Position numbers and translations under genes: made by a program. A DNA stretch of 38,315 nucleotides. Origin: Candidatus Hydrogenedentota bacterium. Its GTDB lineage: Bacteria; JBFMHD01. The stretch is from the NCBI GenBank assembly GCA_040752395.1, contig JBFMHD010000002.1:1-38315 (forward strand), written 5' to 3'. Positions 148 through 38,254 of the stretch are shown in pieces. Every line of letters starts with the position of its first letter. The first letter of the stretch is position 1. The notes under the pieces were generated by a model that saw only the letters and a list, made by a program, of their open reading frames with translations, made no database searches and was not told the origin of the DNA.

Positions 148-247
148 GTGCCTCTGTGCCTTTGTGCTTCTTTTCCTCCCCTTTAAAGTGTCTCGCGTTT
201 CACGGGAGCAGTATACACGTTTCAGAGGAGCACTATAAAGCAGTATA
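148..247. repeat. Repeat A: copy of the 69-bp-family element plus stacked extra termini
   Basis: 159-215 (cctttgtgcttcttttcctcccctttaaagtgtctcgcgtttcacgggagcagtata) matches 10123-10179 and the reverse complement of 17214-17270. It is followed by cacgtttcagaggagcactata and agcagtata. Confidence 0.9.
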
Positions 248-273
248 ACATATCTTTCTTTTGATATTTAAGT

Positions 274-1029
274 TTATCGGGTAAAACTTCTTCTGTTTTT
301 TCCCCTGGCAAGGTTATACCCACGGGGTGTAATCATAAACTTACCTTTTACATAAGTTTTGGTATTGCCCACAATTATAGTTGTAGACATATCGATTATC
401 TTTGAATTAAGCATATCCTTTAGGTTTGTAATTTCCACCTTTTCATTATCTCTATAGGCGTTTTGCACTATTCCCACAGGAGTATGAGATGATTTATATT
501 TCATCAAAATTTGCCATATTCTCTCGAATAGCAATCTTCGTTTTTTACTTTTTGGGTTATAAAAGACAATAATGAAGTCAGCCTGGCAGCCTAATCTCAC
601 CCTCTTTTCGATCAATTCCTTATCTGTCAAAAGGTCACTTAAAGAAATTACCACAAAATCGTGCATTAATGGTGCACCTAAAAGGCTGGCACAAGCTGAA
701 ACAGCGGGAATCCCCGGAATAAATTCAATTTTGATCCTATCCTTTTCTTCTTTATTTAAAAGTTCTAGAATAAGACCAGCCATGCCGTAGATTCCAGCAT
801 CCCCTCCGGAGATGACACAAACATCCTTACCTTGCGATGCCTTCTTTATAGCCAGTTTAGCCCTTTTTATCTCGTCATGCATATCCAACGAGATTACCTT
901 TTTATCATTTACTAAATTGCCAATGAGTCTGGTATAGGTTTTGTAACCGATAACTACTTCACAGTCACCTAATGCAGCCAGAGCTTGTTGAGTTAGAAGG
1001 GCTATATCTCCTGGACCAATCCCTACCAA
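274..1029 (-). CDS. cbiH: Cobalt-precorrin-3 C17-methyltransferase (CbiH/CobJ)
   Basis: VGIGPG, SGGDAGIYGMAG, LGAPLMHDF..ISLSD and YNPKS motifs, C-terminal MITPRGY. The start is uncertain (see findings). Confidence 0.93.
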   Translation of the reverse strand: MVGIGPGDIALLTQQALAALGDCEVVIGYKTYTRLIGNLVNDKKVISLDMHDEIKRAKLAIKKASQGKDVCVISGGDAGIYGMAGLILELLNKEEKDRIKIEFIPGIPAVSACASLLGAPLMHDFVVISLSDLLTDKELIEKRVRLGCQADFIIVFYNPKSKKRRLLFERIWQILMKYKSSHTPVGIVQNAYRDNEKVEITNLKDMLNSKIIDMSTTIIVGNTKTYVKGKFMITPRGYNLARGKNRRSFTR

Positions 1030-1031
1030 GC

Positions 1032-1781
1032 TTAACTTTCCCTGGCAATTGCCACGGTAACGCCGTTTATGATTTTTTTCTTGAGTATTAATTTTGTCCT
1101 CCTGCCCGCAAGTAAAGCACAGGGTTCACATACACCCTCTAAACCAATGTTACGTTTAACAATCTCAGAAGAAGATACTGGACCCTGAAAATTATCAACA
1201 CTTTCTTTGGGGATAAACACCAATGGTAACCCTAATTCTGATGTAGCTTTTATTAGACCTTCTTCATGTTTCTTTAAATCAATAGTTGCTGCCAGGCGTA
1301 TCTGATCTAATTCAATATTTTTCTCTTTTAAGGCAGTAAGAATGGCTTTTTTAACTTTATTTACACTAACACCTCTTCTACAACCTATTCCTATTATGAT
1401 CTTTTTGCGGGTCTCTTTGCCTGTAGTAATAATAGGTAAGGCATCCAAACAACGGGCTACCAAGTATGAAAGCCAGTTTGCACCTCCTTCGTGACCAGAT
1501 AAAACACTTATAGCGAACCGTCCAGCAGTATCTACACATACAACTGCAGGGTCTTTGAATTTATCTTTAATGAAAGGGCTGATAATACGTACAACAATTC
1601 CTAAAGCGGCAATAAATATCAAACCTTCGTATTCGTTGAAAATCTTCCCAACAATATTGGACAACGTCTCGGTTCCACTTCCTCTTTGTATTTTGAAAAT
1701 ACTCGCATTTTCAAAATCTTTCTTTAATAGCTCTGCTATGCTTTCACCATATCTATTTACAGCTATAATTGCGATCTTCAT
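1032..1781 (-). CDS. cbiG: Cobalt-precorrin-5A hydrolase CbiG (short form)
   Basis: DKFKDPAVVCVD, SVLSGHEGGAN, GIGCRRG, GVCEPCALL and VTVAIA motifs. Confidence 0.92.
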   Translation of the reverse strand: MKIAIIAVNRYGESIAELLKKDFENASIFKIQRGSGTETLSNIVGKIFNEYEGLIFIAALGIVVRIISPFIKDKFKDPAVVCVDTAGRFAISVLSGHEGGANWLSYLVARCLDALPIITTGKETRKKIIIGIGCRRGVSVNKVKKAILTALKEKNIELDQIRLAATIDLKKHEEGLIKATSELGLPLVFIPKESVDNFQGPVSSSEIVKRNIGLEGVCEPCALLAGRRTKLILKKKIINGVTVAIARES

Positions 1782-5967: not shown

Positions 5968-8900
5968 TTATCGTTTTCGGAGCCATCCTGCAATAAGTAA
6001 ACCCAAAAACCCGAGAACAATAATCGTTACTGTCCAGGCAGCTCCAGAACTAACCAGCTTTGTATCCTCTTTTTTTTCCTCAATCATTTCGTAACCTTCT
6101 ATTTTTTTCTCTTTCTCTTGTTCTTTGCCTTTAACTACTTCCTCTTCCTGCTGAATCTCTTTTTCTTGTTCTTTGCCTTTAATTACTTCCTCTTCCTGCT
6201 GAATCTTTTTGGTAGTCTGGCCAAGCCTCTCCTGTAATGCCTTTCTTTGTTCTACCGCCTTTTCTATATTCATCCCCACTGTTTTAGAGACAACGAGCTT
6301 AAATTGATTAACTAATTCAGGAGAGAGTAAACCCGGGATAGAGATGATATTGACAACCATCTGATTCAGGAGGGGGTTATTACAGGTATGGTGACAACAA
6401 GCAAGACCTTTTTCAATAACGCTAATTGCATATTTTACAGCTAAGTTCTTTTTAATTTTATCCGGGGCGTCCCAGTAATCTTTCCGTATCGCTTCAAGCA
6501 TCCTGGCCTCAATAGACTGCATTGCCCAGGGACTGGCTTTATCGAAAAATTCTTTGATTTTAAGTTTATACTTATCCTTAATGTAAACCTCATAGACCTG
6601 TTCCCACTTTGTTTTATCAACAGCAAACGGCGTGACTACCTGCCAGCCCCACAAATACTCCACGAATTTATCCATCTCTCTTGCTCCAGCATAATCTTCT
6701 TTCGTCATTCCTTCAATCCATTTTGGGTTCAGATAACGAGCACGTAGCTCCTCGCCAATGGTCCTTTCGATATCCTCAATACGGGCTGTATCCGAATCTT
6801 TCTGATCAGAGATAACGACATCCGGATATTTGCCAGTGATACTCTTTACTGCCAGAGAAAGCCCACCTAAATAGGCAAAAACATCATCATTGTCAATTAC
6901 TCCGTAAACATTAGAAGAATTCGTATGCATAGTCATTTTTACATCCTCAAGACTCTTTTTATAAACGTTTTTCAATTGATCTCCCCATAGATTCTTGCCA
7001 TAAGCAAACGAGACATTATGAATAAAAACATCTGCAAGTTCTTCATCACTTTCCCAGATTCCACTATGGGGAACCAGTTCCTGAAGTTTGGTCATATATG
7101 CACCCTGTGCTTCGCTAAAGACACGTGTATAACTTAGTTTTTCTGCCTTATCTTCGTTGTATCCTTTTTCAATAAGATATTCTTTTATCTTTTGACTGTG
7201 TTTTGCAATAAAATTCTCTACATCTTTAATCTGGGCTGACTGACGTACTGCTTCATCTAAAAGAATCATCACATTAGGAAAAGAATCCCGGAAAAGTCCT
7301 GAAGTTTGTAGATGGACATCTATCCTGGGTCTGCCAAGCAGTTCACCCGGAATTGGTTCAACACCACGTACACGATTGTTTTTATCCCAGATAGGTTTCA
7401 TTCCCAAAAGATAAAGTGCAACACCAACCTGGACTCCTTCGTTGCGATGAACTTCAGTTGCCCAGAAAATAAGCCCAATCTTATCCGGATACTTACTGTT
7501 TTCATTTAAGTATTTCTGAATCATCTCCTCGGCCTGCTTTTTGCCCAGAGTGTAAGCGTCCTTTGAAGGAACTTTTGCAGGGTCAAACCCGTAAAAATTT
7601 CTACCTGTTGGGATAGCATCTGGATTTCTTAAAGGATCGTTACCTTCACCTGATACGATGTATTTACCTTCCAGTCCAGCGACAAGCTTATCTAATTCCA
7701 GATGGCAGAGACTTAGTTTTTCTTTAATTTCAGATAAAGGAGTATTTTCGTTTCTATCTTTGATAAGCTGGCTGATCTCTTCTAATGCCTCTCCTTGTGG
7801 TGATACTCCAAAAGTATGCAGACCATAAGGTACATTAACTTCTTGTAGTTCTATTAGGTAATGTTCGATTTTTTCAATAGCATCTTCATCGATTTTTTCT
7901 AAAAGCAGATCTTTATCTAACCCAAGTTTTTTTACCATAATTACTATCCTCTTAAATTTTTCTTCAGCTAGTTTTTCGTCACGAGACAAAGCATCATTGT
8001 ATTCATCTATCAAGACAGCCAGTTCCCGATACTCCTGATAAATTCCAGCCTTTTTTAAAGCTGGAATAAGATGGTCAATAATTACACCTCGTCCACGACG
8101 TTTTGCCTGTATACCCTCCCCGATATTATCTACAATATAAGGATAGAGGTTGGGTAGGTCTTGTATGAGCACCTCTGGAGGACAGGATTGACTTAAACCT
8201 GCCTGTTTTCCCGGAAGCCATTCATGAGTGCCATGCTTGCCCAGTGAGACAATGGCGTCAGCCTTGAATTCATGCTTAAGCCAGAGATAAAAGGCAGTAT
8301 ATTGATGATGTGGGTATATATTGGGGTCATGATAGAGTTTCATTGGGTTATCACCCCAGCCCCTTGCAGGTTGAGGTAGAAGAATAACATTACCAAGAGG
8401 AACGCAGGGGATGATGAAATCATTGTTTTTGACCATAATCTTAGAATCTTCGGGCTTTCCCCATTGTTCCTCTACCTTTTTACGGTAATCTGGATCGAGT
8501 TCGCAATAAAATTTTAAATAATCGGATACCGGCCAATGGATAACCCTTTTACTTTTGAGTAAATCATCGAGTTCACCTGGGGTCCAGGAGCTGATATTGC
8601 GGCCGCTTTTCAATACAAGTTCCTTAATCTCTTCTTCCGAAGGAAGTTCCCCTTCTATAGAATAACCTTCATCTCGCATTCGCTTTAGAATTACTTCCAG
8701 GCTTCTAAAGACATTAAGGTAACTTGCTCCAACATTTTGTTTACCAGGGGTATGATTCCAATAAATAATGGCAATTTTCTTATCTTTGTTTGGTTTTGTC
8801 TGTAAATTTCTCCAGGTTTTTATCCGTTTAATTATAAATTCAATATTTTCCATAATTGGCCTGGGTTCATAAAACTCTTTACCTGTACGCTCATCCTTTA

Positions 8901-9915: not shown

Positions 9916-10179
9916 CTCCTCTGAAAAACGCTGTAACTCTAATAATTCGGGGTACAGGCTACGGGCTACGGACTACAGCCGGCTGGAGCCAAAAGCCAAA
10001 AGCCAGCTGAAAAGTCTTGAGTCTTGAGTCCTGTTTTGACTCACGACTCTCGACTCCCGACCCCTAACCCCTAACCGCCGCCCCCTAATATACCCCATCC
10101 CCTATGACCAATCCCCTAATATCCTTTGTGCCTCTTTTCCTCCCCTTTAAAGTGTCTCACGTTTCAGGGGAGCAGTATA
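9916..10179. mobile_element. MITE-like composite element (repeats F+B) with inverted termini
   Basis: Left end CTCCTCTGAAA, right end TTTCAGGGGAG(CAGTATA). The left part recurs at 38100-38239. The right 69 bp recur inverted at 17214-17282. Confidence 0.7.
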
Positions 10180-15775: not shown

Positions 15776-15843
15776 CCCCTGTTTTTATCCAAAAACACAA
15801 ACCTTATCACCTTCTTCTTTACCATCGAAGATTATCGGTGAAT

Positions 15844-16027
15844 ATGCGTGGGCAGGTCTTCTGACTCCCGGGTCACTCTACTAACTACGCCTTCCCATCC
15901 ACTTTGTCTGCTTTTTGCAGAACAGTGAACAGTGGACTTGTGTAGCTTTCGTCTCCGGTTACAGCGGCGGGTCCGTAGCAAATGCACTTCCCTATTATAC
16001 CTTTAATGCCAAGGTCACCCATGCACA
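15844..16027 (-). promoter_or_regulatory. Cobalamin riboswitch
   Basis: Minus strand carries GGTG...AATAGGGAA...CCCGCCGCTGTAA...CCACTG...GGGAAGGC...GAGTCAGAAGACCTGCC (B12 box). P1 is TGCATGGG/CCCACGCA. It lies upstream of cobalamin genes. Confidence 0.93.
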
Positions 16028-16044
16028 ATATTTTATTTGATTGT

Positions 16045-16165: not shown

Positions 16166-16585
16166 TTACGATATGTATTTCTTAATTTCTAATACAAAAG
16201 CGTCTATATCCTCTATATTGTCCTTAATCAAATTAAAAAGCAGAAGGTCGTCGCATTTCCAGTAACCGTGCAATAAATACTCGTTTCTTAATTTAACTAA
16301 AAACCTGAGTTTTTCTGATAAAACAAGGGTTAATATTCCATATGCCCCTGCTTTTGTTAAAGCGTCGTTGTAACTCTGTATTACAACTCGTTTTTCTTTT
16401 GCAAGTATGTGCTGTAAAATGTTTAACATGGATTCAACAATAATTATAATAGAATATTTTGTTGCCCGAATAACTTTTTGATCCTGTAAAAATTCTACGG
16501 CTTCTTTTAATATGACCTCTTCTAATAATTTCTTCTCCTCTTGTATTTTAGAAATAAATCTTGCGATAGTATATTTTTGAATCAT
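16166..16585 (-). CDS. HepT-like HEPN ribonuclease toxin (DUF86)
   Basis: LRNEYLLHGY (Rx5HxY) motif; size; overlaps the upstream MNT gene by 4 nt. Confidence 0.8.
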   Translation of the reverse strand: MIQKYTIARFISKIQEEKKLLEEVILKEAVEFLQDQKVIRATKYSIIIIVESMLNILQHILAKEKRVVIQSYNDALTKAGAYGILTLVLSEKLRFLVKLRNEYLLHGYWKCDDLLLFNLIKDNIEDIDAFVLEIKKYIS

Positions 16586-17213: not shown

Positions 17214-17282
17214 TATACTGCTCCCCTGAAACATAAGACACTTTAAAGGGGAGGAAAAGAAGCACAAAGGATATTAGGGGAT
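17214..17282. repeat. Repeat C: inverted copy of 10111-10179
   Basis: 66/69 identical to the reverse complement of 10111-10179 by manual alignment. Confidence 0.93.
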
Positions 17283-17291
17283 GGCTGAAAT

Positions 17292-23200: not shown

Positions 23201-24335
23201 AGATATTAGATGGAGTTTTACCATCATTAAGCCAGACACCATAAGACATAAGACAGAATTCACTAACAGGGAAACCATCAAAATCAAAATCATATAAATC
23301 CGGTGCTCCTAAATCATGAAAAAACTCGTGAGCGATCACACCGAGTGGTGAATATTCGGAGACCATTATGTAGTTCTTTACGTAAACTCCATCAACCGGT
23401 TCGCCGCTATCAGGAAGCCACCACGAATGAGACCAGATATCAGTAGATACAGCGTTCTCAGCCTGATCATAACCTGAATGAATAATTATAAGATGGTCAA
23501 CTACGCAATCGTTATTTTTATCGTATTTAGAGAAATCTACATCTTTATCAGCAAGTCTTACAGCTTCTCGTGTTAGCTCATAAATCGGCGTATTTGCATT
23601 ATCCGGATACCAGTTATCGTCTTCCCCATAAAATTCCATTTTAAAAGAACTATGATAATAATCATTTCCCGATATATCGCCTGCTATGACAAGGTTACCA
23701 TAAGAATTCTCATAAAAATAATGTTTCAATGATCCGTTTTGGTTTCCGAACAGGAGTTCTCTATGTATATTTTGTGAAACCTCACCTTTCTTATCTGTGA
23801 AATCAATCCTGATAACCAGAATATTTTCTATAGGATCAAGGATAGTGTATTTATGTGATGATTCGTTCTGCTTTATAGAATAATTATTATATTCAGTTTT
23901 AATTTTTGATTTTATAAAATTGACCCATCTATTCTTTTTTTTATTATCCGGTAATTTTTTAAAAATATTTTCAGTTTTTTGTATTTCAGTAATTTTAGGT
24001 CTATTTTTATGATTTATTTTTAGCGGTTTTTTAGTTTGTTTTAGATATGGTACTAAATTATCAGGTTTATGTATATTGACTTTTAGGTCAGTAAATTGGA
24101 ATTCATCTTTAAGGTTAGTTGAGAGATATTTAATCCAGCCGTCCTGGTCTCTTGCTACAATATAACCATCTTGAGTTTCAAAATATGCATAATTTTCATC
24201 CCCGATTTGTTTTACATTTACAGGAGTATTATCAGGTTGTCTTAATTGATGTAATTGTTGTTTAGCAGGGACAGCATAGATGTTATGAGCAGATATTAAG
24301 ATATAAACCAGAAAAACCAGTACTTTTTTTGCCAT
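17292..24335 (-). CDS. Giant secreted multidomain hydrolase: M6 (InhA-like) metallopeptidase, GH18, three FN3-plus-alpha/beta modules, carboxypeptidase-regulatory-like domain and dockerin-like C-terminus
   Basis: Signal peptide; QPD..GDE prodomain; IWSH and HEFFHDLGAPDLYD; GH18 motifs EGVCIDFEY, IMAYDYH, LGIPYYG, G.GMWALGYD; three repeats of DDNRY..VIW.T...GGN.F..G.E.GYDLD..YLK..Y.ADD..F.FE; paired GD..D..IN..D / ADINKDNVVNYLD. Confidence 0.85.
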   Translation of the reverse strand: MAKKVLVFLVYILISAHNIYAVPAKQQLHQLRQPDNTPVNVKQIGDENYAYFETQDGYIVARDQDGWIKYLSTNLKDEFQFTDLKVNIHKPDNLVPYLKQTKKPLKINHKNRPKITEIQKTENIFKKLPDNKKKNRWVNFIKSKIKTEYNNYSIKQNESSHKYTILDPIENILVIRIDFTDKKGEVSQNIHRELLFGNQNGSLKHYFYENSYGNLVIAGDISGNDYYHSSFKMEFYGEDDNWYPDNANTPIYELTREAVRLADKDVDFSKYDKNNDCVVDHLIIIHSGYDQAENAVSTDIWSHSWWLPDSGEPVDGVYVKNYIMVSEYSPLGVIAHEFFHDLGAPDLYDFDFDGFPVSEFCLMSYGVWLNDGKTPSNICSYLKMDIDADASNGYAGWLAPVEISDSITRFLQVQPLSGWTELPLPLLYRINTQNPSEYFLCDFRKKQNYDSYLPDEGLCIWHIDESIPERYGSFNSEEPYRINLISPEPSDYYKQFACFDNTTNNGEISPFTTPGTILNNNEYTCIYLSNMSSVSDTISLIYKTAPGPPAIISFGVSEITGNNNNVPEYNEKLSLTIEIKNIGYNTLTEVAAEIGSTDNDLKILNNQGFYGNIEPQKSNISNDFIISISDSLFQTKIIELPVLISDNNKNVWYEKISLKVYDKFKIEEAISIDTNTVNIIFSHNLNPNSITDLSNYTIISESDSSILQVISSTLFDSSTIQLKTKNQKPAETYKLIINNIVDEIENIIPFNSTTYFLSSVIETYEIEKESIHKIELDKYRPYEPVIPFKQVPPPLNTAKSQPRISENKEIFGFYPYWASTSNWNYDLISTVSFFSVEAASDGSLTDLNSWPNYSILTTLHQKGIKIVLTCTLFGGTNIATLVASSTYRSNLINNLKTQVKNGNAEGVCIDFEYVSSSSKNNFTTFMTELRDAFKNENPDYIITMAGPAIGSGYGYDYDALADRCDYIFIMAYDYHWSGGDPGPVAPLYPSTFWSTVYNDSYTVTDYQEKIGVQASCTMVLGIPYYGYNWPSTDYDTPGTKRANASSITYTNAKNAADSWGRIWDPISSTPWYKYGAPSDTRQVWYDDSQSIRLKYSDMVKAQDLRGAGMWALGYDGSKTELWQAIEDYFGTPSPPVLIYAKNIGSGKVRLSWLLPTQSDFDKSRVYQSTNGENFSLVATLNNPTNTYDVSGLTNGNLYYFAVTAVDTGNNESRKSEIFAVSVTSGTPTVLVVADDNRYIKSAYAQFYARPLYNNNYSFDYCDSYAIVNDIILLSDYDVVIWYTGRDSTGGSRTFTSAEQTRVQSYLDSGGNFFVSGQELGYDLDYQGGGVAFYNNYLKADYSADDAGNSLAVSGVAGGIFDGISFTIDRDDNGGDSGGAYDATYPDSISAYGGGILCLRYSTGSGAGVNFNDTYRLVHFAFPFETITTETARISVIQKIMDYFAAETTFYDVIAPAKPTLLSLTNNGNDSITIRWKNPADTDISYIKIYKSTDGSNFSVSDTQPALNLTTNLSGLTNSLLYYFALTIVDSSGNESTNSDTYCIRISTDTAPILIVEDDNRYGVNNYSKYYGESLREAGYYFDNASAEAVVGDTIFLDSYSAVIWFTSRDSKWGYITFTDDEETKARNYLKNGGNLFTTGQEIGYDLDGQNLGEDFYFNYLKSFYSADDAGNNVSVNGISGGIFDGLSFAIDADNGINDGGAYDATYPDSIGVYPGGDGSLNLLYSNYKGAGVNFSGTVPAGSETCKVVNFGFPFECITTSPNRKLVIQKIMEYFNLGTTDTPVILVSPLQYTKQQAASPWTINLVATDNQDTTLYLNWSLFDTDATLWDSMVITEGETDYLTLYQKTTGVGSDTFTLRVEDSDGYFDTVSIVVLIQSIYKPDTPIFQYIVNNLTGTSVNLCWYDDTYASKYWIYQSTDGSNFILSDTIFNSETSATLTGRLNNTLYYFRLKGLNNVDTESDFSDMYAVRTTANPVDLLIVEDDNRYGSNDYIINYAKALDSFSYNFNCCSREAIADGYVSLLDYDKVIWFTSKDSNWGEGTFYQDEQAKIIEYLEDGGNLFVSGNEIGYDLDYKNNGQSFYNNYLKADYGADDSLKYKVVGSDSGIFDNLLINIYTDDAGSTQGISAYQAKWPDRFSFTTTGYNNSQTAMQYESETGYAAGIQFAGGLETSDSVCKLVHLGFAFEIINDTAARNEVMRSIINFFDSSCVSGKINLEDLTYCTGGATVYLIKSDNSETQVYTTGENGFFSFVNVASGDYYLRVRKSGFLETKTDNFSVTNNIDTYITSITLSGGDAYEDNMINLLDAALVKICIDNSTYDTNADINKDNVVNYLDLQYIRLNFGAIGK

Positions 24336-24406
24336 CTTATCAATTTTACAAATATTTTACTTTTAGTGCTCCTGGGTAATATAATACACTTAGCTGGCAT
24401 TGCCAA

Positions 24407-25117
24407 TCATTTTTTCCTTAATTTTCTTACAATAAATACGTCACGTGAGGTTTTTAATATGCGTTTAAATAAATTGATTTTACTTTTTCCACATTTTCGT
24501 GGTCTGTGATTTATCGGCACTTCTTTTATTTTATAACCCTCTATTCGTAGTAAAGTTGGGATAAATCTGTGCATGCCATTAGAAAGGTGGATTTTTTTAA
24601 TTACACTACTTTGATAAATACGCATAGTTGAGGAACTGTCTTTTATTGACTCACCGATTATTAAGTTACGTAAAAGATTACCTGTTTTTGATAATACTCT
24701 TCGTATAAAATTGTCTTTTCGTTTTCTACGCCAGGTAACAACAGCATCGTAACCATCTATTTCCTGTAGCAGACGATGGATATCACGAGGATCATTCTGT
24801 AAATCGCCATCCATACTTATAATTAATTTACCAGAGGAGCTTGCGAACCCTTTTTCTAAAGCAGCTGAGATTCCTGAATTTTTCTCTATAAATATCGGTT
24901 TAACAGTTATGTCATTCAATTTTAGTAATTCGTCTTTAGTTCCATCATTTGAGCCATCATCAACGAATATTATTTCATAGGTTTTATTTATCTTTTCTAA
25001 TTCTGTTTTCAATTCTTCATAAAGGGGTTGTATATTTTCTTTTTCATTGAATACAGGGATAACAATTGAGAGTAGTGGTGATTCGTAAACCGGGCTTACT
25101 TCACTCTTTATGTTCAT
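24407..25117 (-). CDS. GT2 polyprenyl-phosphate glycosyltransferase (DPM1/ArnC-like)
   Basis: LSIVIPVFNE, FVDDGSNDGT, MDGDLQNDP, HRFIP and HRPR..GKSK motifs. Confidence 0.9.
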   Translation of the reverse strand: MNIKSEVSPVYESPLLSIVIPVFNEKENIQPLYEELKTELEKINKTYEIIFVDDGSNDGTKDELLKLNDITVKPIFIEKNSGISAALEKGFASSSGKLIISMDGDLQNDPRDIHRLLQEIDGYDAVVTWRRKRKDNFIRRVLSKTGNLLRNLIIGESIKDSSSTMRIYQSSVIKKIHLSNGMHRFIPTLLRIEGYKIKEVPINHRPRKCGKSKINLFKRILKTSRDVFIVRKLRKK

Positions 25118-25128
25118 TTATAACATCC

Positions 25129-25215
25129 CTTGTAGTGCTCCCTGTTTGTCGAGACATTTTTTAGTAAATTTTCGGCACATTTTGACCTGACCATTCTAAT
25201 CAGGGGAGCAGTATA
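25129..25215. mobile_element. Repeat D: ~85-bp MITE-like element with terminal inverted repeats flanked by TA
   Basis: TA-GTGCTCCC...GGGGAGCAG-TA; 86/87 identical to the reverse complement of 32523-32609. Confidence 0.8.
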
Positions 25216-26114
25216 TCCCTCTTCTCTATAAGATAAGAGATACTACCTAAAAATACTTCTGTTATTATTATTATTATCCGAAAACTTACAACTATTGGAG
25301 AGATAATATATACAGGGATATAATCTTTTAACAACATAATTAATATCCCTTCACGAACGCCTATACCAGCTGGTGCGGTATAAGTTATGAATCCTATAAC
25401 ATAGGCTATACCCGTAGTAGAGACAAATACCGGCAACATTGTTAGTTCTATCTCTATAAGTGATCTGGTGTACATAAATAAAGCTGTTCCTAACAAAGGC
25501 GCTGGTATTAAATAGTAACATATAAATTTTATTAATTCATAAGTTTTATAACAGGGTTCGAAATCCTCTATTTTTAATATTTGTATTTTTTTAAGTATTC
25601 TTCTAAAAAAGTTAAATAAACCAGAAATTATTACAAGAATAATTATTATTGAAAAGATAGCAAAAAGGCTTTTTAAAGAATAAATACTCGTATATTCTCG
25701 ATAATAAAAATAACCGATCAGATAAATAATTGTAAAGGCACTTATTAAACAAATAGACTCAATAACAAAGCATTGCAGCAACCAGACTTTATCAACATTA
25801 TCTTTCACACCGAAGTAGATTCTTGTTAAAGGATGCCAGACCCCGCCTGGAACATAACGAGGCAAACAGGAGATAAGCCAGCTACGGATTAAGCGGCTAA
25901 TCTTACCCCTTTTACCACCCGAACGAACAATCAGCATCCAGCACGCTGATAAAAGTAAACAGTATATTACTAATATTAAAAGAGTCACTGATAAATAATA
26001 TAGATTAAATCTCCACTGGAACTCTTTTATTTTTTCGAGATTGATGAAAATAATCCTGAAGATAAAGATAAAAATAACAAGAATAATGGCTGATAAAAAA
26101 ATCTTTTTTTTCAT
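25200..26114 (-). CDS. Lysylphosphatidylglycerol-synthase TM / UPF0104 flippase-like membrane protein
   Basis: RYVPGGVW and PAGIGVREG motifs; about 8 TM segments; next to a GT2 gene. Confidence 0.8.
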   Translation of the reverse strand: MKKKIFLSAIILVIFIFIFRIIFINLEKIKEFQWRFNLYYLSVTLLILVIYCLLLSACWMLIVRSGGKRGKISRLIRSWLISCLPRYVPGGVWHPLTRIYFGVKDNVDKVWLLQCFVIESICLISAFTIIYLIGYFYYREYTSIYSLKSLFAIFSIIIILVIISGLFNFFRRILKKIQILKIEDFEPCYKTYELIKFICYYLIPAPLLGTALFMYTRSLIEIELTMLPVFVSTTGIAYVIGFITYTAPAGIGVREGILIMLLKDYIPVYIISPIVVSFRIIIIITEVFLGSISYLIEKRDILLP

Positions 26115-26179: not shown

Positions 26180-27886
26180 ATGACAAAATCTGAAAAAATA
26201 GTTATTGTTATATTTATTCTATTCATAATATCTGGAATTATATTTTTTCATCTTGAACGTTTTGGCGATGCATCAAATTATTATCTAATGACAATAAGTT
26301 TATTAAAAGATGGGGACCTTGAATTCAGTCAAAAAGATTTTAATCGTATAAAAGAGAACCCCTTTTCTGATGTGCCCGCAGGAACGATACTTATTTTTTC
26401 AAATGGTAAATATTACTTTGGCAAACCTTACATCTATGCATTATTAAATGTCCCTTTATTTTATTTTATTAAAGAAAAATCATTTCTCTTTGTGAACCTG
26501 TTTTTGTTTTTTACTATGGTGTTTCTTTCCATACGATATCTTCTTAAAAAAAACAGCTTTTTTCGTTCAGCTGTTTTTACGATTTTTTATTTCTTTTTAT
26601 CAATTGTCCCTTTTTATATTTTATGGATACATGAAGAGATATTCAATTTTTTTATTGTCTTTATATTCTTCTATTTTTTGTTAAATTTTAAAGCTACTGA
26701 TAAAACTTATTATCTGTATTTAGCAGCCGTGTGTTGTGGCATAGGTTCTGCAATAAAATTGATTAATTCTCTTTTAATCTTACCACTACTTTTAACACTT
26801 GTGCGAAAAAATATTAAAATAATTACAAATTTTATTATTGTAATGTTGTTACCTGTATTTATTATCCTTGGCCTGTTTTATATTCATACAGGCATACTAA
26901 CTTATTTCAGTGGTGATATCCGGGAGATGTATTATAAACTTGATGATATGCCGTATTCTAATCCGTTGTATCCTTATAAAACTCATGGTAGAGATGTGAA
27001 ATTAGATGAGATGGTTCCGCCTGTTAATAAAAGTTTTGTTATTCCAAATATATTTTATTTTTTGTTTGGCAGGTTTACTGGTATTTTATGGTATTTTTTC
27101 CCTTTAATAACAATTTTATTTTTTTACGATAAAAGATCCCCTTTACGGTATCATCTTCTCTGTCTTTTTATTTTATGGGTTGTCTGTCTGTGTGTAGGGA
27201 GGTGGTACAATTATTATGGCGGAGTACCTCTTGGTAATAGATATTTCCATTTATATCCTGCTTTTATTTTTCTTGTAGCTAATATCAGATTCAAGAAAAT
27301 TTTTACTGTTTTAGTGGTATTTGCTTGTGTGTTGATTCTGCCATTATATGCTCATCCCTATCTCCATTCTTCAATGCCGTACTCGCATACTGTTTATTTC
27401 CCCTATAATTTAATGCCTGTAGAAAAGAATCAGTTACCCGGTCTCCCTTTCTGGGGTAAACCAATCAAACCGTTTTGGTGGGTAAGATATGATAATACGT
27501 ATGTACAAAGAAAGGCTTACTATAGTGACATATTTTTCTTTGTTTTGGATTTTTCAGGCGAACTTAGAAAAGACTCTATATTCATAAAAGAGAAAGAGAG
27601 ATTTAAAGCCTTAATCGAGATACCTGAAGATGTTTCGCCTCTTTTTAAGATTGTATTTTGTCCGCTAAGAAATCAGGTGATCAACGAGGACAGAGTTGCT
27701 TCTGTAAAAGTGTCCTATAATAATCAGCATTACAATGTAGTTTTAGAGAATGATAAAGAAGCTTATCTTATCTTAAGACGGCCTGATGATAAACCCATAA
27801 AGCGAATCGAAAAGAAATGGTATCAGACAGAATTAAATATCAAACCCGAGGCTTGTGATATTTTTCTAAAGATTATTACTTTCTGA
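26180..27886 (+). CDS. Multi-pass membrane protein, probable GT-C fold glycosyltransferase
   Basis: GD...YY.M..SL..DGD first loop, many TM segments, GG..LGNRY motif, soluble C-terminus; context. Confidence 0.6.
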   Translation: MTKSEKIVIVIFILFIISGIIFFHLERFGDASNYYLMTISLLKDGDLEFSQKDFNRIKENPFSDVPAGTILIFSNGKYYFGKPYIYALLNVPLFYFIKEKSFLFVNLFLFFTMVFLSIRYLLKKNSFFRSAVFTIFYFFLSIVPFYILWIHEEIFNFFIVFIFFYFLLNFKATDKTYYLYLAAVCCGIGSAIKLINSLLILPLLLTLVRKNIKIITNFIIVMLLPVFIILGLFYIHTGILTYFSGDIREMYYKLDDMPYSNPLYPYKTHGRDVKLDEMVPPVNKSFVIPNIFYFLFGRFTGILWYFFPLITILFFYDKRSPLRYHLLCLFILWVVCLCVGRWYNYYGGVPLGNRYFHLYPAFIFLVANIRFKKIFTVLVVFACVLILPLYAHPYLHSSMPYSHTVYFPYNLMPVEKNQLPGLPFWGKPIKPFWWVRYDNTYVQRKAYYSDIFFFVLDFSGELRKDSIFIKEKERFKALIEIPEDVSPLFKIVFCPLRNQVINEDRVASVKVSYNNQHYNVVLENDKEAYLILRRPDDKPIKRIEKKWYQTELNIKPEACDIFLKIITF

Positions 27887-29287: not shown

Positions 29288-29497
29288 AATACTTTGTTCT
29301 TTATAATATAGTGTGTTCGATTAAGATGCAATATTTTTTTGGGCCAGACTTGCTTCGACTGGCCGCAAGGGTCACTATAATTAATGACATACAATTTAAC
29401 AATTCTTGGTTCTTGACGATTAATTCTTGCTTCTGTAACATTTTTAATTAGGGAGACGTCCCATATTTACGAGGAGACAGGAGACAGACTTCTTGCT

Positions 29498-29544
29498 TCT
29501 TGCTTCTACTTGATATTATTATAGTTACAGCGTTTTTCAGAGGA
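29498..29544 (+). repeat. Repeat I: upstream-type element end directly before the sulfatase-like gene
   Basis: tcttgcttctacttgatattattatagttacagcgtttttcagagga, nearly identical to 31702-31748; the core is the reverse complement of the left ends at 9916, 34451 and 38100. Confidence 0.9.
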
Positions 29545-29550
29545 TAGTTT

Positions 29551-30993: not shown

Positions 30994-31263
30994 TTATCCG
31001 AAAACGTCCTTTTTATACACTTCTTTACCATGAGCAACTCTCAATATTAGTATTTCGTTATTAGAAATAATAGAATATATAATTCTATAATCTCCAATCC
31101 TGTATGAAAATAAACCTTTAAAATCGCCGACTAATTCTTTTCCTTTTCGTGGATATAAAGAAAGTTCCTTCTCTATTTTATTTAAAAGCCTTCGGCATTG
31201 TCTCTTGTCGATTTTATCCAGATCTTTAGTAACTGATTTTTTATAATTAATCTTATAAACCAA
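30994..31263 (-). CDS. RelE/ParE family toxin
   Basis: YKI......KDL.K, YRIGDYRIIY and V.H.KEVY motifs. Confidence 0.9.
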   Translation of the reverse strand: MVYKINYKKSVTKDLDKIDKRQCRRLLNKIEKELSLYPRKGKELVGDFKGLFSYRIGDYRIIYSIISNNEILILRVAHGKEVYKKDVFG

Positions 31264-31471
31264 GATTTTTCCTCATTTCTTTTGATGAAATTATCTTGTC
31301 GTCTTTATCATTAAATCTGTCCAATGCTATTTGATAATCGGCATACTCAATTAAATAATTTTCGATAGCTTTTTTAATGATAAAAGTCTTAGACCGTTCT
31401 AAATCCCTACATAATTTATTCAAAGGTGTCGCTATTTCATCTGGAATTCTTACTGATAATGTTTGGGGCAT
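31253..31471 (-). CDS. RelB/CopG ribbon-helix-helix antitoxin
   Basis: LSVRIP, RSKTFIIKKAIE.YL.E..D motifs; SD AGGAGG upstream of ATG 31471; overlaps the toxin gene. Confidence 0.88.
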   Translation of the reverse strand: MPQTLSVRIPDEIATPLNKLCRDLERSKTFIIKKAIENYLIEYADYQIALDRFNDKDDKIISSKEMRKNLGL

Positions 31472-31482
31472 ATAAATCCTCC

Positions 31483-31529
31483 TGTAATATATGTAATACA
31501 ATTATACCATTATATTAATAAATCGTCAA
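31483..31529 (-). promoter_or_regulatory. Sigma70 promoter and probable autorepression operator of the relBE-like pair
   Basis: TTGACG (31529-31524), 17 nt spacer, TATAAT (31506-31501) with TGn extension; followed by TGTATTACA-TAT-ATTACA. Confidence 0.8.
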
Positions 31530-31564: not shown

Positions 31565-31749
31565 AAGTAGAATGAAGAAGCAAGAGACAGATAACGGAAA
31601 AGAAAGATAACGAAAGAGGCAAGAAGCAAGGTAATGGAAAACTGTTGTAGGACCGAAAAAAAACCTTGTGCCTCTGTGCCTCTTGTTTCTTGCTTCTTGC
31701 CTCTTGCTTCTACTTGATATTATTATAGTTACAATGTTTTTCAGAGGAG
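31565..31749 (+). repeat. Repeat J: heptamer-based imperfect inverted repeat plus upstream-type element end
   Basis: gaagcaagagacag...gaggcaagaagcaag opposite cttgtttcttgcttcttgcctcttgcttctactt; ends attattatagttacaatgtttttcagaggag. Confidence 0.8.
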
Positions 31750-32522: not shown

Positions 32523-32609
32523 TATACTGCTCCCCTGATTAGAATGGTCAGGTCAAAATGTGCCGAAAATTTACTAAAAAATGTCTCGACAAACGGGGAG
32601 CACTACAAG
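32523..32609. mobile_element. Repeat E: inverted copy of element D, preceded by a partial extra terminus at 32513-32522
   Basis: One mismatch against the reverse complement of 25129-25215; tatactgctc is duplicated. Confidence 0.8.
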
Positions 32610-33496
32610 AATGAGAGGTCGGTAAAATTGTGATTAAAGATTGGGGTAATATCGTAATCCCACTTAAGATGAGCGTAATGTTTTTTAGCATAGTTTAAAC
32701 AGCAAGAAATAAACTGGAGATAAAAATCATTTTTTTTCACACGGTACTGGTAAGCGAATGTGCCGATGGCTTTAATATTTCTCTGCAGCGCAACTACTCT
32801 TAAATCTGAATATTCATCCCACTTTTTTATCAATCTACCACGTAGATTATTACCGATATTAACATAAGCATCGTATAAAAACGAGGCGATATCATATAAT
32901 GGATGCGCAAAACGTGCATCCTGAAAATCTATTAAATAAAATTTATTATTATGTACTAAAATATTTCGCGAGTGATAATCTCTGTGAGCAGGTATCAGTT
33001 TTGTTTTTGATGCAGATAGCGCAAGTTTTTTGTAAAAAGGTAATAATCTGTCATCACCTCTATTATCGAAGTAATATCTATGGAAATGTAGAAGTTCTTT
33101 TTCTAATGCTTCGGCATTTAAGCAGAGGTGTTGAGGAAAGATACTTATTTCTTTTGAAGCAGCGATTCTTAATAAGTAGTCTGTTAATATTTCATAAGCT
33201 TTCTCTATCTCGATTTTATCTGCTTCTTTAAGCCAATCGAAAAGCAAGACATCACCCAGGTCTTCAAGTAAAAATGTTAAGCCATCAGGAGATATATCAT
33301 AAATCTCAGGTACAGGTATATCGAGTTTAGATAACCAATCCCTGACAATGCCAAATCTTTTTGCCTGCATTATATATGGTTCTTCATCCGGGAATACCAT
33401 TAATATTATATGTGTTTTATTTTTCTTAATCCTATAAAATGACCGGCTTGATGCGTCACCTTTAAGACGAACCGCATCTTTGGGGATCTTAAACAT
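32603..33496 (-). CDS. amgK: AmgK-like anomeric MurNAc/GlcNAc kinase (APH family)
   Basis: GDASSRSFYR, LLEDLGD, HRDYHSRN, IDFQDA, YD.AS.L.D and QR.IKA.G.F motifs; adjacent to a MurU-like gene. Confidence 0.78.
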   Translation of the reverse strand: MFKIPKDAVRLKGDASSRSFYRIKKNKTHIILMVFPDEEPYIMQAKRFGIVRDWLSKLDIPVPEIYDISPDGLTFLLEDLGDVLLFDWLKEADKIEIEKAYEILTDYLLRIAASKEISIFPQHLCLNAEALEKELLHFHRYYFDNRGDDRLLPFYKKLALSASKTKLIPAHRDYHSRNILVHNNKFYLIDFQDARFAHPLYDIASFLYDAYVNIGNNLRGRLIKKWDEYSDLRVVALQRNIKAIGTFAYQYRVKKNDFYLQFISCCLNYAKKHYAHLKWDYDITPIFNHNFTDLSFL

Positions 33497-34450: not shown

Positions 34451-34523
34451 CTCCCCTGAAAAACGCTGTAACTCTAATAATTTCACGAAGTGAGAAGTAA
34501 GAAGTGTGCCTCTGTGCCTTTGT
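34451..34523 (-). repeat. Repeat H: upstream-type element end plus heptamers
   Basis: ctcccctgaaaaacgctgtaactctaataatt matches 9916-9947; followed by gaagtga/gaagtaa/gaagtgt and gcctctgtgcctttgt. Confidence 0.88.
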
Positions 34524-36238: not shown

Positions 36239-37513
36239 TCAAGATAATAATCTTGCATTATGTCTTCTAATATCTGCACTGAGTTTTGTATAAAAATCAT
36301 AATCGTCGTATACTGATAATGTACAATTATGTAATAAGGGTTCTATTGATATTTGGGGGTTCTTTTTAACTGAATATTCAAAATCAAATGAACCAGGAAC
36401 AGGTGAATATAAAGCAAGAAAAATCTTAAGCCCCAATTGTTTAATAAATTCTATTGTTTTTAAAACAGATTGTTTACTTATAAGTGGCGAGCCGTACATT
36501 GTATATACACCTATATCACTAAAACCAGGTTTCTTTAAATATCTGACTGCTTGTTCTATCTCGTGAGTATAAATTTTGCCACCGCTTGATTGCTGGAACT
36601 CAGTATCTGTGGTCTCGAAACCGAGACGTATAGTCTTAAAATTTGCTTCTTTTAAGAGATGTGCTATATCGTGATTGATCTTTCGAGCGTGGATAGCATT
36701 TGGGAGATGAAACCGTGCATTTTTAAATTTGCTTAAGGCTCTTAAAAATCTCTCTATATCGTTGTGATATAAAAGGGCATCATCTATAAATGAAAAATCT
36801 TTTACTCCTTTTGATACACCGTTTTCTATCAACTCTAAAACCGGTTCTATGGGTAATGAAATAAAATCAGGCTGGAGTAATTTTGTAACGCAATAGGAGC
36901 AATTAAATGGGCAACCCTCAGTTATTCTTATCTGATAACTCTTTATATTTTTATAGCAGCTGTAATCAGGGATAACATAATGCAAATCTACATCTAAATC
37001 CATCCCTAAAAATTCACCTAAATCAGTGGTATCAATAATTATTTGGTCTGCTCCGCTATATTTTTCAGAATGTTCTTTACAGAGGGTTGCGTATATACCA
37101 CCAAGACCGACAGGACCCTCATTAAAATATTTACGTACTAAATCTATTATCAATTTCACACCATCATACCAGTAAGTCATATACGAGGTTATTAGTATTT
37201 TATCAGGGTGCGGAATAGATTTAAAGAATTCCAGGACCAGTTCCTGATAGATACCGTAGATACCATATCTGCGTGGAATATTTTTTAAGATTTCGGGTTT
37301 AGGAATAAACTTTTTATAAAATTTACCAGAACCATTGCCGCGCTCATTTAAAAATATCATTCCGGGATAATATCTATCAAGACAATCAAGAAAAGAAGTT
37401 TCCATACCTTTCTCGTCAAGGACTCGTTTAATCTTTAAAAGACCGTATGGTTTCATCCAGAAATCAAACGCGGCAAAATCTGTTATCCAGGGGTTAATCA
37501 ATAAAACATGCAT
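36239..37513 (-). CDS. B12-binding-domain radical SAM protein
   Basis: N-terminal LLINPWI.DFAA.D.W.KP.GL, TS.MTYWY.G and LGG.YATL motifs; GCPFNCSYC; F.DDALL; R.GFET. Confidence 0.88.
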   Translation of the reverse strand: MHVLLINPWITDFAAFDFWMKPYGLLKIKRVLDEKGMETSFLDCLDRYYPGMIFLNERGNGSGKFYKKFIPKPEILKNIPRRYGIYGIYQELVLEFFKSIPHPDKILITSYMTYWYDGVKLIIDLVRKYFNEGPVGLGGIYATLCKEHSEKYSGADQIIIDTTDLGEFLGMDLDVDLHYVIPDYSCYKNIKSYQIRITEGCPFNCSYCVTKLLQPDFISLPIEPVLELIENGVSKGVKDFSFIDDALLYHNDIERFLRALSKFKNARFHLPNAIHARKINHDIAHLLKEANFKTIRLGFETTDTEFQQSSGGKIYTHEIEQAVRYLKKPGFSDIGVYTMYGSPLISKQSVLKTIEFIKQLGLKIFLALYSPVPGSFDFEYSVKKNPQISIEPLLHNCTLSVYDDYDFYTKLSADIRRHNARLLS

Positions 37514-37520
37514 AATAAGT

Positions 37521-38093
37521 TCAGGAGTTCAAGTGTTCAGGAGTTGAGGAGTCAGAAAGCTGAGATTTATACTTTTCTCGAACCCTATTAAAAAAAGTAG
37601 TAAATTCCAGAGTACGATAGTCAGGATATGTCCATTCAAGCGGCGTGTAAGATTTGTTTTTGTAAATCAGCGTGACCTCACAATGTATGCCTCTGCCAAG
37701 ATAAATTCTGTGTGAATAATCTTTTGTCGTAAGAAGAGCAATTTTTGAGAGTGTCAGATAGCCAGGGTCTAAATTTACCATTCGTTTGAAAGACCGGCTT
37801 TGATCTCCCTCCCTGCAAAACTCTTCTTCAATACTGTTTGTTTTGATCTTTATTTCCGGGAGTTTTTCAGGATTTATAAGGTTTGCAAAAGAATATATTA
37901 CTTTATTAAGAGTGCTGCCCATCTCTTCATTATAATAATCTGTATACGTGAATTCTATTTCATCGCTTTTATCATCAATTTCACCGAAGACAGTAATCAA
38001 TCTCGATTCAATATCAGGTAACGATATGGTATGTGTATTATACATCAGACTGCAGAACAATTTGTAATTTTGTTGGAATCTAATATTTCCCAT
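37521..38093 (-). CDS. DUF4416 family protein
   Basis: T.YY..EMG, K..TN..E, R.VNLDPGY, L.TTK...HRIYL..G and WTYPDY motifs. Confidence 0.85.
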   Translation of the reverse strand: MGNIRFQQNYKLFCSLMYNTHTISLPDIESRLITVFGEIDDKSDEIEFTYTDYYNEEMGSTLNKVIYSFANLINPEKLPEIKIKTNSIEEEFCREGDQSRSFKRMVNLDPGYLTLSKIALLTTKDYSHRIYLGRGIHCEVTLIYKNKSYTPLEWTYPDYRTLEFTTFFNRVREKYKSQLSDSSTPEHLNS

Positions 38094-38099
38094 AATTTA

Positions 38100-38254
38100 C
38101 TCCTCTGAAAAACGCTGTCACTCTAATAATTCGGGGTACAGGCTACAGGCTACGGACTACAGCCGGCTGGAGCCCAAAGCCCAAAGCCTGCTGAAAAGTC
38201 TTGAGTCTCGAGTCTCGAGTCCTGTTTTGACTCACGACTTGCGACTTGTGACTC
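38100..38254 (-). repeat. Repeat G: direct copy of 9916-10056 with altered heptamer copy number
   Basis: ctcctctgaaaaacgctgt(c/a)actctaataattcggggtacaggctac...gagtcctgttttgactcacgact is shared with repeat F. Confidence 0.92.

Follow-up and report, generated by a model that had tools for sequence, protein, structure and literature searches.

The window, i.e. the whole stretch of 38,315 nucleotides that was analysed, carries short repeated blocks between its genes that share the terminus CAG(A/G)GGAG. What kind of DNA are these blocks, and how do they come to lie at gene boundaries? The original prediction considered them an active family of non-autonomous elements with the short terminal inverted repeats and TA flanks of IS630/Tc1-mariner-type MITE. 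The source genome is a draft MAG (349 contigs, 2.8 Mb, 93.8% complete) of an uncultured, deep-branching bacterium. The genes are crude longest-ORF calls, and ORF starts were counted for ORFs of at least 50 codons.

The family of CAG(A/G)GGAG-ended elements in the window is real. The motif CAGRGGAG has 11 exact matches, against a shuffle expectation of 1.05, and no shuffle out of 100 gave as many. Of these matches, nine fall in the predicted loci (positions 223, 9916, 10165, 17221, 25201, 31742, 32530, 34451 and 38100); the other two, at 24832 and 28681, lie within ORFs and are probably chance matches. At the locus 29498-29544 the terminus takes the one-mismatch form CAGAGGAT. The blocks named in the prediction are all true repeats. 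The 87-nt block at 25129-25215 is 99% complementary to the one at 32523-32609, and the 69-nt blocks at 10111-10179 and 17214-17282 match at 96%, with a further copy at 159-215. The 32-nt block occurs in three direct (9916, 34451, 38100) and two inverted copies (29515, 31719), and a 115-nt repeat (9916-10030 and 38100-38214) is 95% identical. Period-7 arrays are present at all listed loci, and repeat islands are found in 10 of the 15 window spacers that exceed 60 nt, as judged from the genome-wide repeat map and the ORF calls.

Table. Repeat features of the window with their gene context and composition.
Feature	Position	Strand	Gene context	Composition and details
Island	127..247	-	3' end of tetrapyrrole-methylase gene, stop at 274	TGTGCCT-type short repeats; copy of the 40-nt stop-side end module at 159-215; 22-nt tandem duplicate of the stop-side end at 216-237, carrying CAGAGGAG
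Complete 264-nt element	9916..10179	-	Fills spacer from DUF2149 gene stop (10205) to CobN start (9900)	In + coordinates: stop-side end module 10140-10179; G-rich heptamers 10055-10122; hairpin C 10006-10060; hairpin B 9948-10005; 31-nt gene-start module 9916-9946, its terminal GGAG 15 nt upstream of CobN ATG
69-nt block (stop-side end module)	17214..17282	-	9 nt past stop (17292) of 2347-aa gene	CAGTATA end faces away from that gene
87-nt element	25129..25215	+	Covers final 16 nt of ORF 25200-26114 (-) and provides its stop codon	13-nt imperfect inverted ends
Heptamer array and type-A gene-start module	29472..29545	+	5 nt upstream of sulfatase ATG (29551)	Ends CAGAGGAT
Long heptamer hairpin and type-A gene-start module	31565..31749	+	Module end 19 nt upstream of ATG 31769 (metallo-beta-lactamase-fold gene)	Ends CAGAGGAG; sigma-70-like match TTGCCT-18-TATTAT at 31697-31726
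87-nt element, second copy	32523..32609	-	Convergent spacer; covers final 7 nt (stop) of ORF 32603-33496 (-)	10-nt tandem duplicate of the element's end at 32513-32532
Gene-start module, CAGGGGAG variant	34451..34523	-	7 nt upstream of ATG 34443 (nucleotidyl-transferase gene)	Preceded by short heptamer and octamer arrays
Gene-start module (38100-38131) in longer element	38100..38315	-	6 nt upstream of ATG 38093 (DUF4416 gene)	Also hairpin B, hairpin C and the beginning of more modules; element continues past contig end

These loci probably belong to one genome-wide, polar and mosaic family of intergenic repeats that acts as gene-boundary DNA. The dense modular family seen in the window is not confined to it, as 1255 repeat islands make up 5.2% of the assembly. 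The interchange of modules is borne out by comparisons across copies, and the location at gene junctions by islands that often lie flush with stops and starts: 249 of 610 stop-to-island and 247 of 640 island-to-start distances are within about 20 nt. In the nusG-rplK spacer on C13, the island starts approximately 4 nt past the stop and finishes 5 nt upstream of the ATG. Period-7 arrays number 1904 genome-wide, with 1591 in islands, and period-6 arrays 155. The heptamer arrays form inverted pairs, i.e. imperfect hairpins stacked upstream of the gene-start module, and heptamer numbers differ between copies by slippage-like steps. Hairpins lie close to both ends of the elements. Along a 483-nt island, the copy number climbs from about 22 to about 320 and higher toward the gene start. 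The mean folding advantage of the sense over the antisense strand is only 2 kcal/mol (161 of 266 copies, which are not independent). The module sequences have no match in Rfam, plasmids or phages.

The most abundant component is the gene-start module, for which the pattern TTTTTCAG[AG]GGA has 345 copies in the genome. In 241 of them, all in one fixed orientation, an ORF start (at least 50 codons) follows the GGAG by 0-13 nt, most often by 5-8 nt, and in a further 17 it lies 14-59 nt on. The remaining copies are followed by another repeat module (18) or by the continuing island (22), lie at contig ends (14) or on tRNAs (2), or fall in none of these groups (31). The shared terminus, predicted to be the end of the element, is mostly the point where the repeat meets the Shine-Dalgarno GGAG of the gene that follows. 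A constant repeat end joins this ribosome-binding site a few bases upstream of about 250 start codons, with the Shine-Dalgarno at native spacing. In the information profile (316 copies, anchored upstream), values of 1.0-1.6 bits run through CAGAGGAG and drop to 0.26 at the following base, and the letters of GGAG are conserved at 87-91%, equal to the element's own last letters. The base that follows GGAG is a G in 50% of 197 module copies and in 38% of 342 native GGAG sites, with a background of 18%, so the Shine-Dalgarno runs on into unique DNA. The junction motif TTTTC[AG]N[AG]GGAG, with 448 copies, terminates several different modules, and other modules share a CTCC joint (C70, C290, C296, C80). 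After CAGAGGAG comes a unique spacer and then the start codon.

The genes behind these modules have little in common. Module identity is about 95% over 31 nt in some 300 copies, and 20 randomly picked module-preceded genes are unrelated housekeeping genes, e.g. those for RecA, L11, L15, RNase Y and polyphosphate kinase. Co-directional (199 of 1709) and divergent (38 of 406) gene starts carry the module at similar rates, with no context preference. Type A (199 copies) contains an extended -10-like TGnTATTAT, type B (95 copies) has no promoter match, and both occupy the same contexts. Among the 42 tRNAs, four start with GGAG. Two of these (Ser on C28 and Tyr on C175) are preceded by ...TTTTTCAGA fused exactly to the tRNA's own GGAG, and none of the other 38 carries the module. 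A second end, CAGGGGAGCAGTATA, has 33 copies genome-wide, mostly facing gene stops, and modules are also found at gene ends and in reverse orientation. The R module (102 copies) contains GTAG-headed palindromes and has an ATG 4-7 nt after GGAG in 86 copies; its open frame has no constant length (10, 23, 31, 32, 50 and other numbers of codons).

The best reading of the family is a GGAG-anchored, copy-and-paste gene-boundary repeat, a new variant within the range of BIME, BOX, MIRU and STRR. It behaves as a gene-boundary cassette, unlike an ordinary jumping element. Seen from the sense strand of the gene that follows, a typical element consists of a stack of imperfect tandem-heptamer hairpins and then a gene-start module of 31-45 nt, unstructured and U-rich, whose last letters ...TTTTTCAGA join GGAG as the Shine-Dalgarno, 5-8 nt upstream of the start codon. 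The rarer end module ...CAGGGGAGCAGTATA usually abuts the stop codon of the preceding gene. Pasting of modules may take place at a GGAG/CTCC joint that serves as target site or as microhomology, and the family would therefore land on or rebuild ribosome-binding sites and not insert at random. Spread would proceed by copy-and-paste from the gene-start end, with variable upstream reach and no target duplication. In the mRNA, the hairpins may stabilise the transcript, mark processing sites or terminate transcription. The module would supply a strong ribosome-binding region, to which the 199 type-A copies may add an extended -10-like promoter, to judge from the consensus match. We infer insertion, its joint and its direction alike.

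A bolder form of the GGAG-anchored reading, which can be proposed only tentatively, is a mobile element with the Shine-Dalgarno itself as its homing site. Such an element would be pasted 5' of any GGAG and leave the ribosome-binding site and the gene intact. Every gene, even a tRNA gene that starts with GGAG, would offer it a place to land that is transcribed and does no harm. The leaders, perhaps also promoters and mRNA ends, of about one tenth of the genes would thus be standardised, and the same GGAG/CTCC joint would be the site of module shuffling. On the other hand, GGAG could be carried by the element instead of being its target, as its conservation equals that of the element's last letters. 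Selection for a strong ribosome-binding site would likewise enrich G after GGAG, and the tRNA argument consists of two cases only.

Polarity and a fixed tetranucleotide also characterise single-strand (HUH/Y1) elements, either IS200/IS605-PATE or REP/RAYT, which would recognise subterminal hairpins and insert beside the bottom-strand CTCC, i.e. GGAG on the gene strand. IS200/IS605 elements insert beside a fixed tetranucleotide, have no inverted ends and produce no duplication. The family resembles them in its fixed orientation to a 4-nt anchor with no duplication seen, in the hairpins near both ends and in the GTAG-headed palindromes of the R module and the 87-nt element. The sharp end at GGAG and the fusion to the native GGAG of two tRNAs would be consistent with the PATE type as well. 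However, Y1_Tnp/RAYT (PF01797) and TnpB (PF07282) have no match in the 93.8%-complete assembly. In place of short guide hairpins there are long heptamer arrays, and the copy-number gradient resembles 5' truncation, which is atypical of IS200/IS605 or REP/RAYT elements. This origin is rather unlikely.

The functional position of the module, with its Shine-Dalgarno at native spacing, would also suit a shared regulatory leader that does not move. The leader would be a promoter with a translation-initiation region, or the site of one regulator, kept alike by selection and gene conversion between spacers, with arrays growing by slippage. The slippage-like steps in heptamer numbers agree with this, and the TAACTGA repeats of Ca. 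Maribeggiatoa have been read as possible sites of a post-transcriptional regulator (PMC4679880). Against a leader stand the identity of about 95% over 31 nt in front of some 300 unrelated genes, the sharp boundary common to all copies and the modules at gene ends and in opposite orientation. Two copies, moreover, precede tRNA genes, which need no ribosome-binding site. A non-mobile leader is an unlikely explanation.

The predicted IS630/Tc1-like family, moved by a classical DDE transposase with inverted ends and TA duplication and with its positions shaped by purifying selection only, is very unlikely. Terminal inverted repeats hold for the 87-nt element, which has 13-nt inverted ends with two mismatches, a GTAG-headed palindrome at one end and 14 near-identical full copies (98-100%). 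They do not hold for the main family, since an end of the CAGAGGAG type lies within 700 nt of a CAGGGGAGCAGTATA end in only three of 33 cases and about 300 gene-start modules have no partner end, although over about 13 nt the gene-start end is similar to the inverted stop-side end. Next to the 19 listed 87-nt copies there is no shared dinucleotide and no TA or other duplication. The TA after the terminus is not a flanking duplication, because CAGGGGAG is followed by a conserved CAGTATA in 33 of 33 copies genome-wide and CAGAGGAG by the unique spacer. No transposase occurs in the window, as predicted, and none bounded by the family termini, RAYT included, was found in the assembly; the four transposase genes present (three DDE_Tnp_1 and one IS110) lack these termini. 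The profile of DDE_3 (IS630, PF13358) had no match in the 93.8%-complete genome but matched control genomes, an absence that in a draft MAG is not proof, as transposase genes are often missing from MAGs; rve and reverse transcriptase were not found in the assembly either. Random insertion followed by selection would, moreover, leave many copies further upstream, whereas 241 of 345 have a start codon 0-13 nt away, in a single orientation.

An artefact of assembly or binning that wrongly joined repeats to unrelated contigs, as the 275 of 698 contig ends within islands and the N runs in some islands might suggest, is hardly credible given hundreds of contig-internal copies that are flanked on either side by unique coding sequence and have a start codon at the spacing of a Shine-Dalgarno, and a reversed-pattern control search with 0 matches. 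Integron attC cassettes, promoterless units arrayed next to an IntI integrase, were rejected: the islands lie between housekeeping genes genome-wide, and only three tyrosine-recombinase matches occur, two in frames of Xer-like length (297 and 291 aa) and one in a 202-aa frame with an internal stop.

Several known repeat systems share part of these properties. The mycobacterial interspersed repetitive units (MIRU), reportedly described by Supply et al. in 1997, are said to be tandem intercistronic units of 40-100 nt that hold small ORFs coupled to neighbouring genes. The present family is likewise intercistronic, fixed in orientation to the flanking genes, flush with stops and starts and variable in unit number. 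It differs in its heptamer-hairpin body, in the constant 31-45-nt end fused to GGAG and in about tenfold more copies per Mb, and its sole mini-ORF-like piece is the R module. BOX of Streptococcus pneumoniae and BIME of enterobacteria are not known to be anchored to start codons or Shine-Dalgarno sequences, and BIME are mobilised by RAYT. Both are, as here, intergenic mosaics that combine a few kinds of module in varying number, fold strongly as RNA and encode no transposase themselves, whereas the module sequences are unrelated and no Y1 gene was found in the present genome. Short GTAG-headed palindromes combined in mosaics typify REP/BIME-REPIN; here such palindromes occur in the R module and at one end of the 87-nt element, and the bulk of the family consists of heptamer arrays. 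In Correia elements, inverted ends come with a TA duplication, a combination not seen here. IS630/Tc1-mariner MITE are also short, non-coding and multi-copy, with the 87-nt member and its inverted ends as the closest counterpart; the present family differs from them in that it shows no TA duplication and no IS630 transposase but strong polarity with GGAG anchoring. Most families of putative mobile promoters are pairs, in a survey that covered positions -150 to -50 (Nijveen et al. 2012, PMC3575422). These and the Correia elements resemble the present family in placing highly similar DNA, possibly with a promoter, upstream of unrelated genes, whereas here about 300 members occupy 2.8 Mb and the similarity reaches 5-8 nt from the start codon. 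In Ca. Maribeggiatoa (Beggiatoaceae), direct repeats of the heptamer TAACTGA closely precede start codons (MacGregor 2015, PMC4679880). Like these and the STRR of cyanobacteria, the islands hold tandem heptamers in spacers. Unlike them, the arrays form inverted pairs, and a non-heptamer module that carries or joins the canonical GGAG lies between arrays and start.

If the GGAG anchoring holds, the family would be a naturally occurring example of DNA, selfish or domesticated, that has the ribosome-binding site as its address, and this would explain a very high repeat density in a compact genome without gene breakage. One mobile sequence would set the translation-initiation regions, and possibly the promoters and mRNA hairpins, of hundreds of unrelated genes. 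The family also provides a way into the heptamer repeats of the STRR and TAACTGA type, which occur at gene boundaries in several phyla and have long lacked an explanation. In practical terms, 275 of the 698 contig ends are assembly breaks at these repeats, and the 31-nt module is a ready binning marker for the lineage.

The terminus CAG(A/G)GGAG, which the original prediction placed at about ten intergenic loci, is over-represented in the window, one complete contig (C112; 38,315 nt), with 11 occurrences against 1.05 expected and none of 100 shuffles reaching 11. Nine of these matches fall within the predicted loci and the other two are internal to ORFs. A repeat search of the window retrieves the blocks of 87 nt (99%), 69 nt (96%) and 32 nt (three direct and two inverted copies) as true repeats, together with a further repeat of 115 nt (95%), and arrays of heptamers with period 7 are present at all the predicted loci. 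The motif excess, the confirmed blocks and the period-7 arrays uphold the observation, and the reading of the repeat family that was built on it is partly supported.

Positions of the repeat-related and other features on the contig (one tRNA gene lies on contig C157)
Position	Strand	Feature
6108-6210		CobN ORF, 3' part: 48-nt unit repeated 2.2 times (94% matches), encoding tandem repeats of 16 residues
9901-10204		304-nt island used for folding
9916-10179		one of three complete stop-side/gene-start pairs
10055-10122	sense	TTAGGGG/GGGGTTA-type G-rich heptamers
15834-16037	-	cobalamin riboswitch (86 bits) ahead of asparagine-synthase-like and diphthamide-synthase-like genes
16166-17019	-	toxin-antitoxin pair, HepT and nucleotidyltransferase (MNT type)
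17214-17282		CAGGGGAGCAGTATA-type end, inverted to the next
25129-25215		CAGGGGAGCAGTATA-type end, inverted to the previous
24832		CAGRGGAG internal to an ORF
28681		CAGRGGAG internal to an ORF
25200-26114		ORF with stop codon provided by the 87-nt element
32603-33496		ORF with stop codon provided by the 87-nt element
26180-27886	+	568-aa ORF without Pfam match; surroundings (26-27 kb) very A+T-rich, 26% G+C
29498-29544		CAGAGGAT
30994-31501	-	toxin-antitoxin pair, ParE and ribbon-helix-helix protein
31697-31726		TTGCCT-18-TATTAT, flagged by promoter scan
38255-38315	-	R module
C157:2258-2351	-	tRNA-Ser

The gene-start module, the U-rich 31-45-nt end of an island, is in most copies fused to the Shine-Dalgarno sequence of the gene that follows. 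All five window copies of the 32-nt block are directed towards the next gene and end shortly upstream of its ATG, at 15 nt for CobN, 5 nt for a sulfatase, 19 nt for a metallo-beta-lactamase-fold gene, 7 nt for a nucleotidyl-transferase and 6 nt for a DUF4416 gene. Across the draft genome (349 contigs, 2.84 Mb, 34.8% G+C, 93.8% complete) the pattern TTTTTCAG[AG]GGA has 345 copies. In 241 of them an ORF of 50 or more codons begins 0-13 nt downstream of GGAG (mode 5-8), and in 17 such a start lies at 14-59 nt. Another repeat module comes next in 18 copies, the island continues past GGAG in 22, contig ends interrupt 14 and two adjoin tRNAs; the remaining 31 are without explanation, and 30 of these have no Rfam match at E <=0.01.

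When the copies are aligned by their upstream letters, conservation is kept through CAGAGGAG and falls from 1.26 to 0.26 bits at the following base, which places the terminus at the junction with the Shine-Dalgarno sequence. The native GGAG before other genes shows a spacing peak at 6-11 nt, a range similar to that of the module. The base following GGAG is G in 50% of module copies (n = 197) and in 38% of native sites (n = 342), against a background of 18%, and this enrichment indicates that the ribosome-binding site extends into unique DNA. The Shine-Dalgarno sequence is a translation-initiation signal, and GGAG at native spacing with a U-rich stretch before it would constitute a strong translation-initiation region, as read from the sequence and from textbook knowledge.

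The 343 gene-start modules comprise 199 of type A, with TGnTAT(T/C)AT, and 95 of type B; 42 others have another module ahead of TTTTTCAGAGGA and seven are of other kinds. Type A contains an extended -10-like TGnTATTAT, and the promoter scan flags a match at 31697-31726, which suggests that the type-A module may carry a promoter; the scan of type B gave nothing similar. A division into promoter-bearing type A and operon-internal type B was rejected, since the contexts are common to both types.

By crude gene calls, a stop codon lies no more than about 20 nt from the island onset in 249 of 610 cases, and a called start no more than 20 nt from the island end in 247 of 640. Among gene starts, 199 of the 1709 co-directional and 38 of the 406 divergent ones have the module upstream; these similar rates indicate no preference of context and a module that is often inside operons. 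An apparent depletion in divergent spacers, obtained by counting gaps >100 nt, was dropped in favor of these per-start rates, because such a gap is produced by the island itself. Such operon-internal cases are the nusG-rplK spacer, with a tandem pair of modules, and rplO. A sample of 20 random genes downstream of a module has unrelated functions (e.g., RecA, L11, L15, RNase Y, polyphosphate kinase and PilO).

Selection at the RNA level was also considered. The 304-nt island has a folding energy of -102 kcal/mol (z -2.98) for the sense RNA and of -74.8 kcal/mol (z -2.61) for the antisense, a gap that is mostly compositional, since its shuffles likewise give -87 and -62. Over 266 copies the sense strand folds better by only 2 kcal/mol on average, a weak signal, and the inference of selection from it was rejected.

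The GGAG terminus is not confined to protein-coding genes. Four of the 42 tRNA genes start with GGAG, and two of them, tRNA-Ser (contig C28) and tRNA-Tyr (contig C175), have a module upstream whose ...TTTTTCAGA is fused to the tRNA's own first GGAG, the segment that pairs with CTCC of the acceptor stem. All 38 other tRNAs lack a module upstream. Different modules have the common ending TTTTC[AG]N[AG]GGAG (448 copies), and other modules are spliced at a common CTCC on contigs C70, C290, C296 and C80. These few cases point to GGAG/CTCC as a putative joint, either as target or as microhomology. A third tRNA starting with GGAG, on contig C157, has a different T-rich heptamer array that reaches its first base.

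The islands, defined by 16-mers occurring at least five times, number 1255. Together they span 146,754 nt (5.2% of the assembly) and take in 275 of the 698 contig ends. They contain 1591 of the 1904 period-7 arrays; period-6 arrays number 155. On the sense strand of the gene, long islands show a recurrent order of heptamer modules, R module, short connector, hairpin C, hairpin B, CTTGCTT heptamers and gene-start module. The copy number climbs in the direction of the gene start, from ~22 at the far end to ~55 in the following segment, ~150 for the R module, ~200 for the connector, ~230 for hairpin C, ~320 for hairpin B and about 165-470, depending on the 18-mer, for the CTTGCTT heptamers with the gene-start module. 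This polar gradient would be compatible with a copy-and-paste process initiated from the gene-start end, with truncation at the 5' side, with copying by a rolling-circle or one-ended route, with conversion tracts, or with the subsequent loss of dispensable upstream parts.

The R module consists of GGAG, 5 nt, ATG and a GC hairpin, and resembles a decoy for, or a relic of, a gene start. Genome-wide, the ATG lies 4-7 nt past GGAG in 86 of 102 copies, directly followed by the hairpin, which is headed by GTAG on the opposite strand. The open frame begins MSA(V/G)CALH and runs for 10, 23, 31, 32, 50 or other numbers of codons, and this varying length argues against a real peptide. The G-rich heptamers of the window recur on the sense strand of other islands and could form G-quadruplexes; quadruplex-forming heptamers of Xanthomonas and Nostoc are the subject of PMC4692102.

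A second terminus, CAGGGGAGCAGTATA, ends a 40-nt hairpin module and likewise the 87-nt element. The nearest gene boundary is a stop codon in 22 of its 33 copies, often overlapping or a few nt away, and a start in 10, usually at greater distance. This end and the gene-start end are alike when inverted, and a single master element running from one to the other was ruled out, as only 3 of the 33 copies fit. Full copies of the 87-nt element number 14, at 98-100% identity; its inverted ends of 13 nt are imperfect, one subfamily has an exchanged right half, and no duplication was seen at the flanks. The layout of 17214-25215, where two mutually inverted ends of this type flank 8 kb, resembles that of a composite transposon; this stretch encodes a secreted-type protein of 2347 aa (M6 peptidase, GH18, fn3, dockerin) and a family-2 glycosyltransferase.

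The classification as MITEs of the IS630/Tc1 type fails on TA duplication, transposase and polarity. Profile searches of the 93.8% complete draft gave no match to Y1_Tnp, TnpB, DDE_3, RVT_1 or rve, only one Y2_Tnp fragment (34 residues, 22 bits) and only a resolvase fragment containing stops. Three DDE_Tnp_1, one IS110 and three tyrosine recombinase genes are present; no family termini occur at the DDE_Tnp_1 and IS110 loci, and the search for a transposase bounded by the repeat termini found no cognate enzyme in this genome.

A 30-nt module pattern (<=2 mismatches) occurs 319 times in the genome and is absent from the reversed control and from the 40 nearest genomes compared, whose kinship is at domain level only. 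The genome is the sole one of its phylum among the species representatives compared, and its assembly lacks the 16S rRNA gene. Plasmid and phage collections gave no match to the repeat modules. Scans of a sequence collection retrieved contig L007, whose ends are the same repeats (about 87-100% identity) around an interior not found in the genome, and contig L008, with a 23-nt match without repeat context.

MIRU are intercistronic, oriented repeats, and BOX and BIME are mosaic repeats; these are the nearest to the present family in working. The island body resembles heptamer repeats that occur in cyanobacteria and Beggiatoaceae. For Ca. Maribeggiatoa, 169 TAACTGA sets are reported, most of them immediately upstream of start codons (PMC4679880). 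Similar upstream DNA at unrelated genes has been termed putative mobile promoters (PMC3575422), whose families, in contrast to the present one, are mostly pairs. Among the families compared, the present one is set apart by a constant module that is not built of heptamers and joins GGAG, by the presence of this module at ~1/10 of all genes and by the tRNA fusions. The titles and abstract openings retrieved by literature searches describe no such family, and the motif strings matched only unrelated primers, with supplements outside the search.

Rfam matches over the whole window (E <=0.1) are limited to the cobalamin riboswitch and a tRNA. The diphthamide-synthase-like gene behind this riboswitch is followed by genes for a TonB-dependent receptor, DUF2162, an ExbB-like protein and DUF2149, and then by CobN and the cbi operon.
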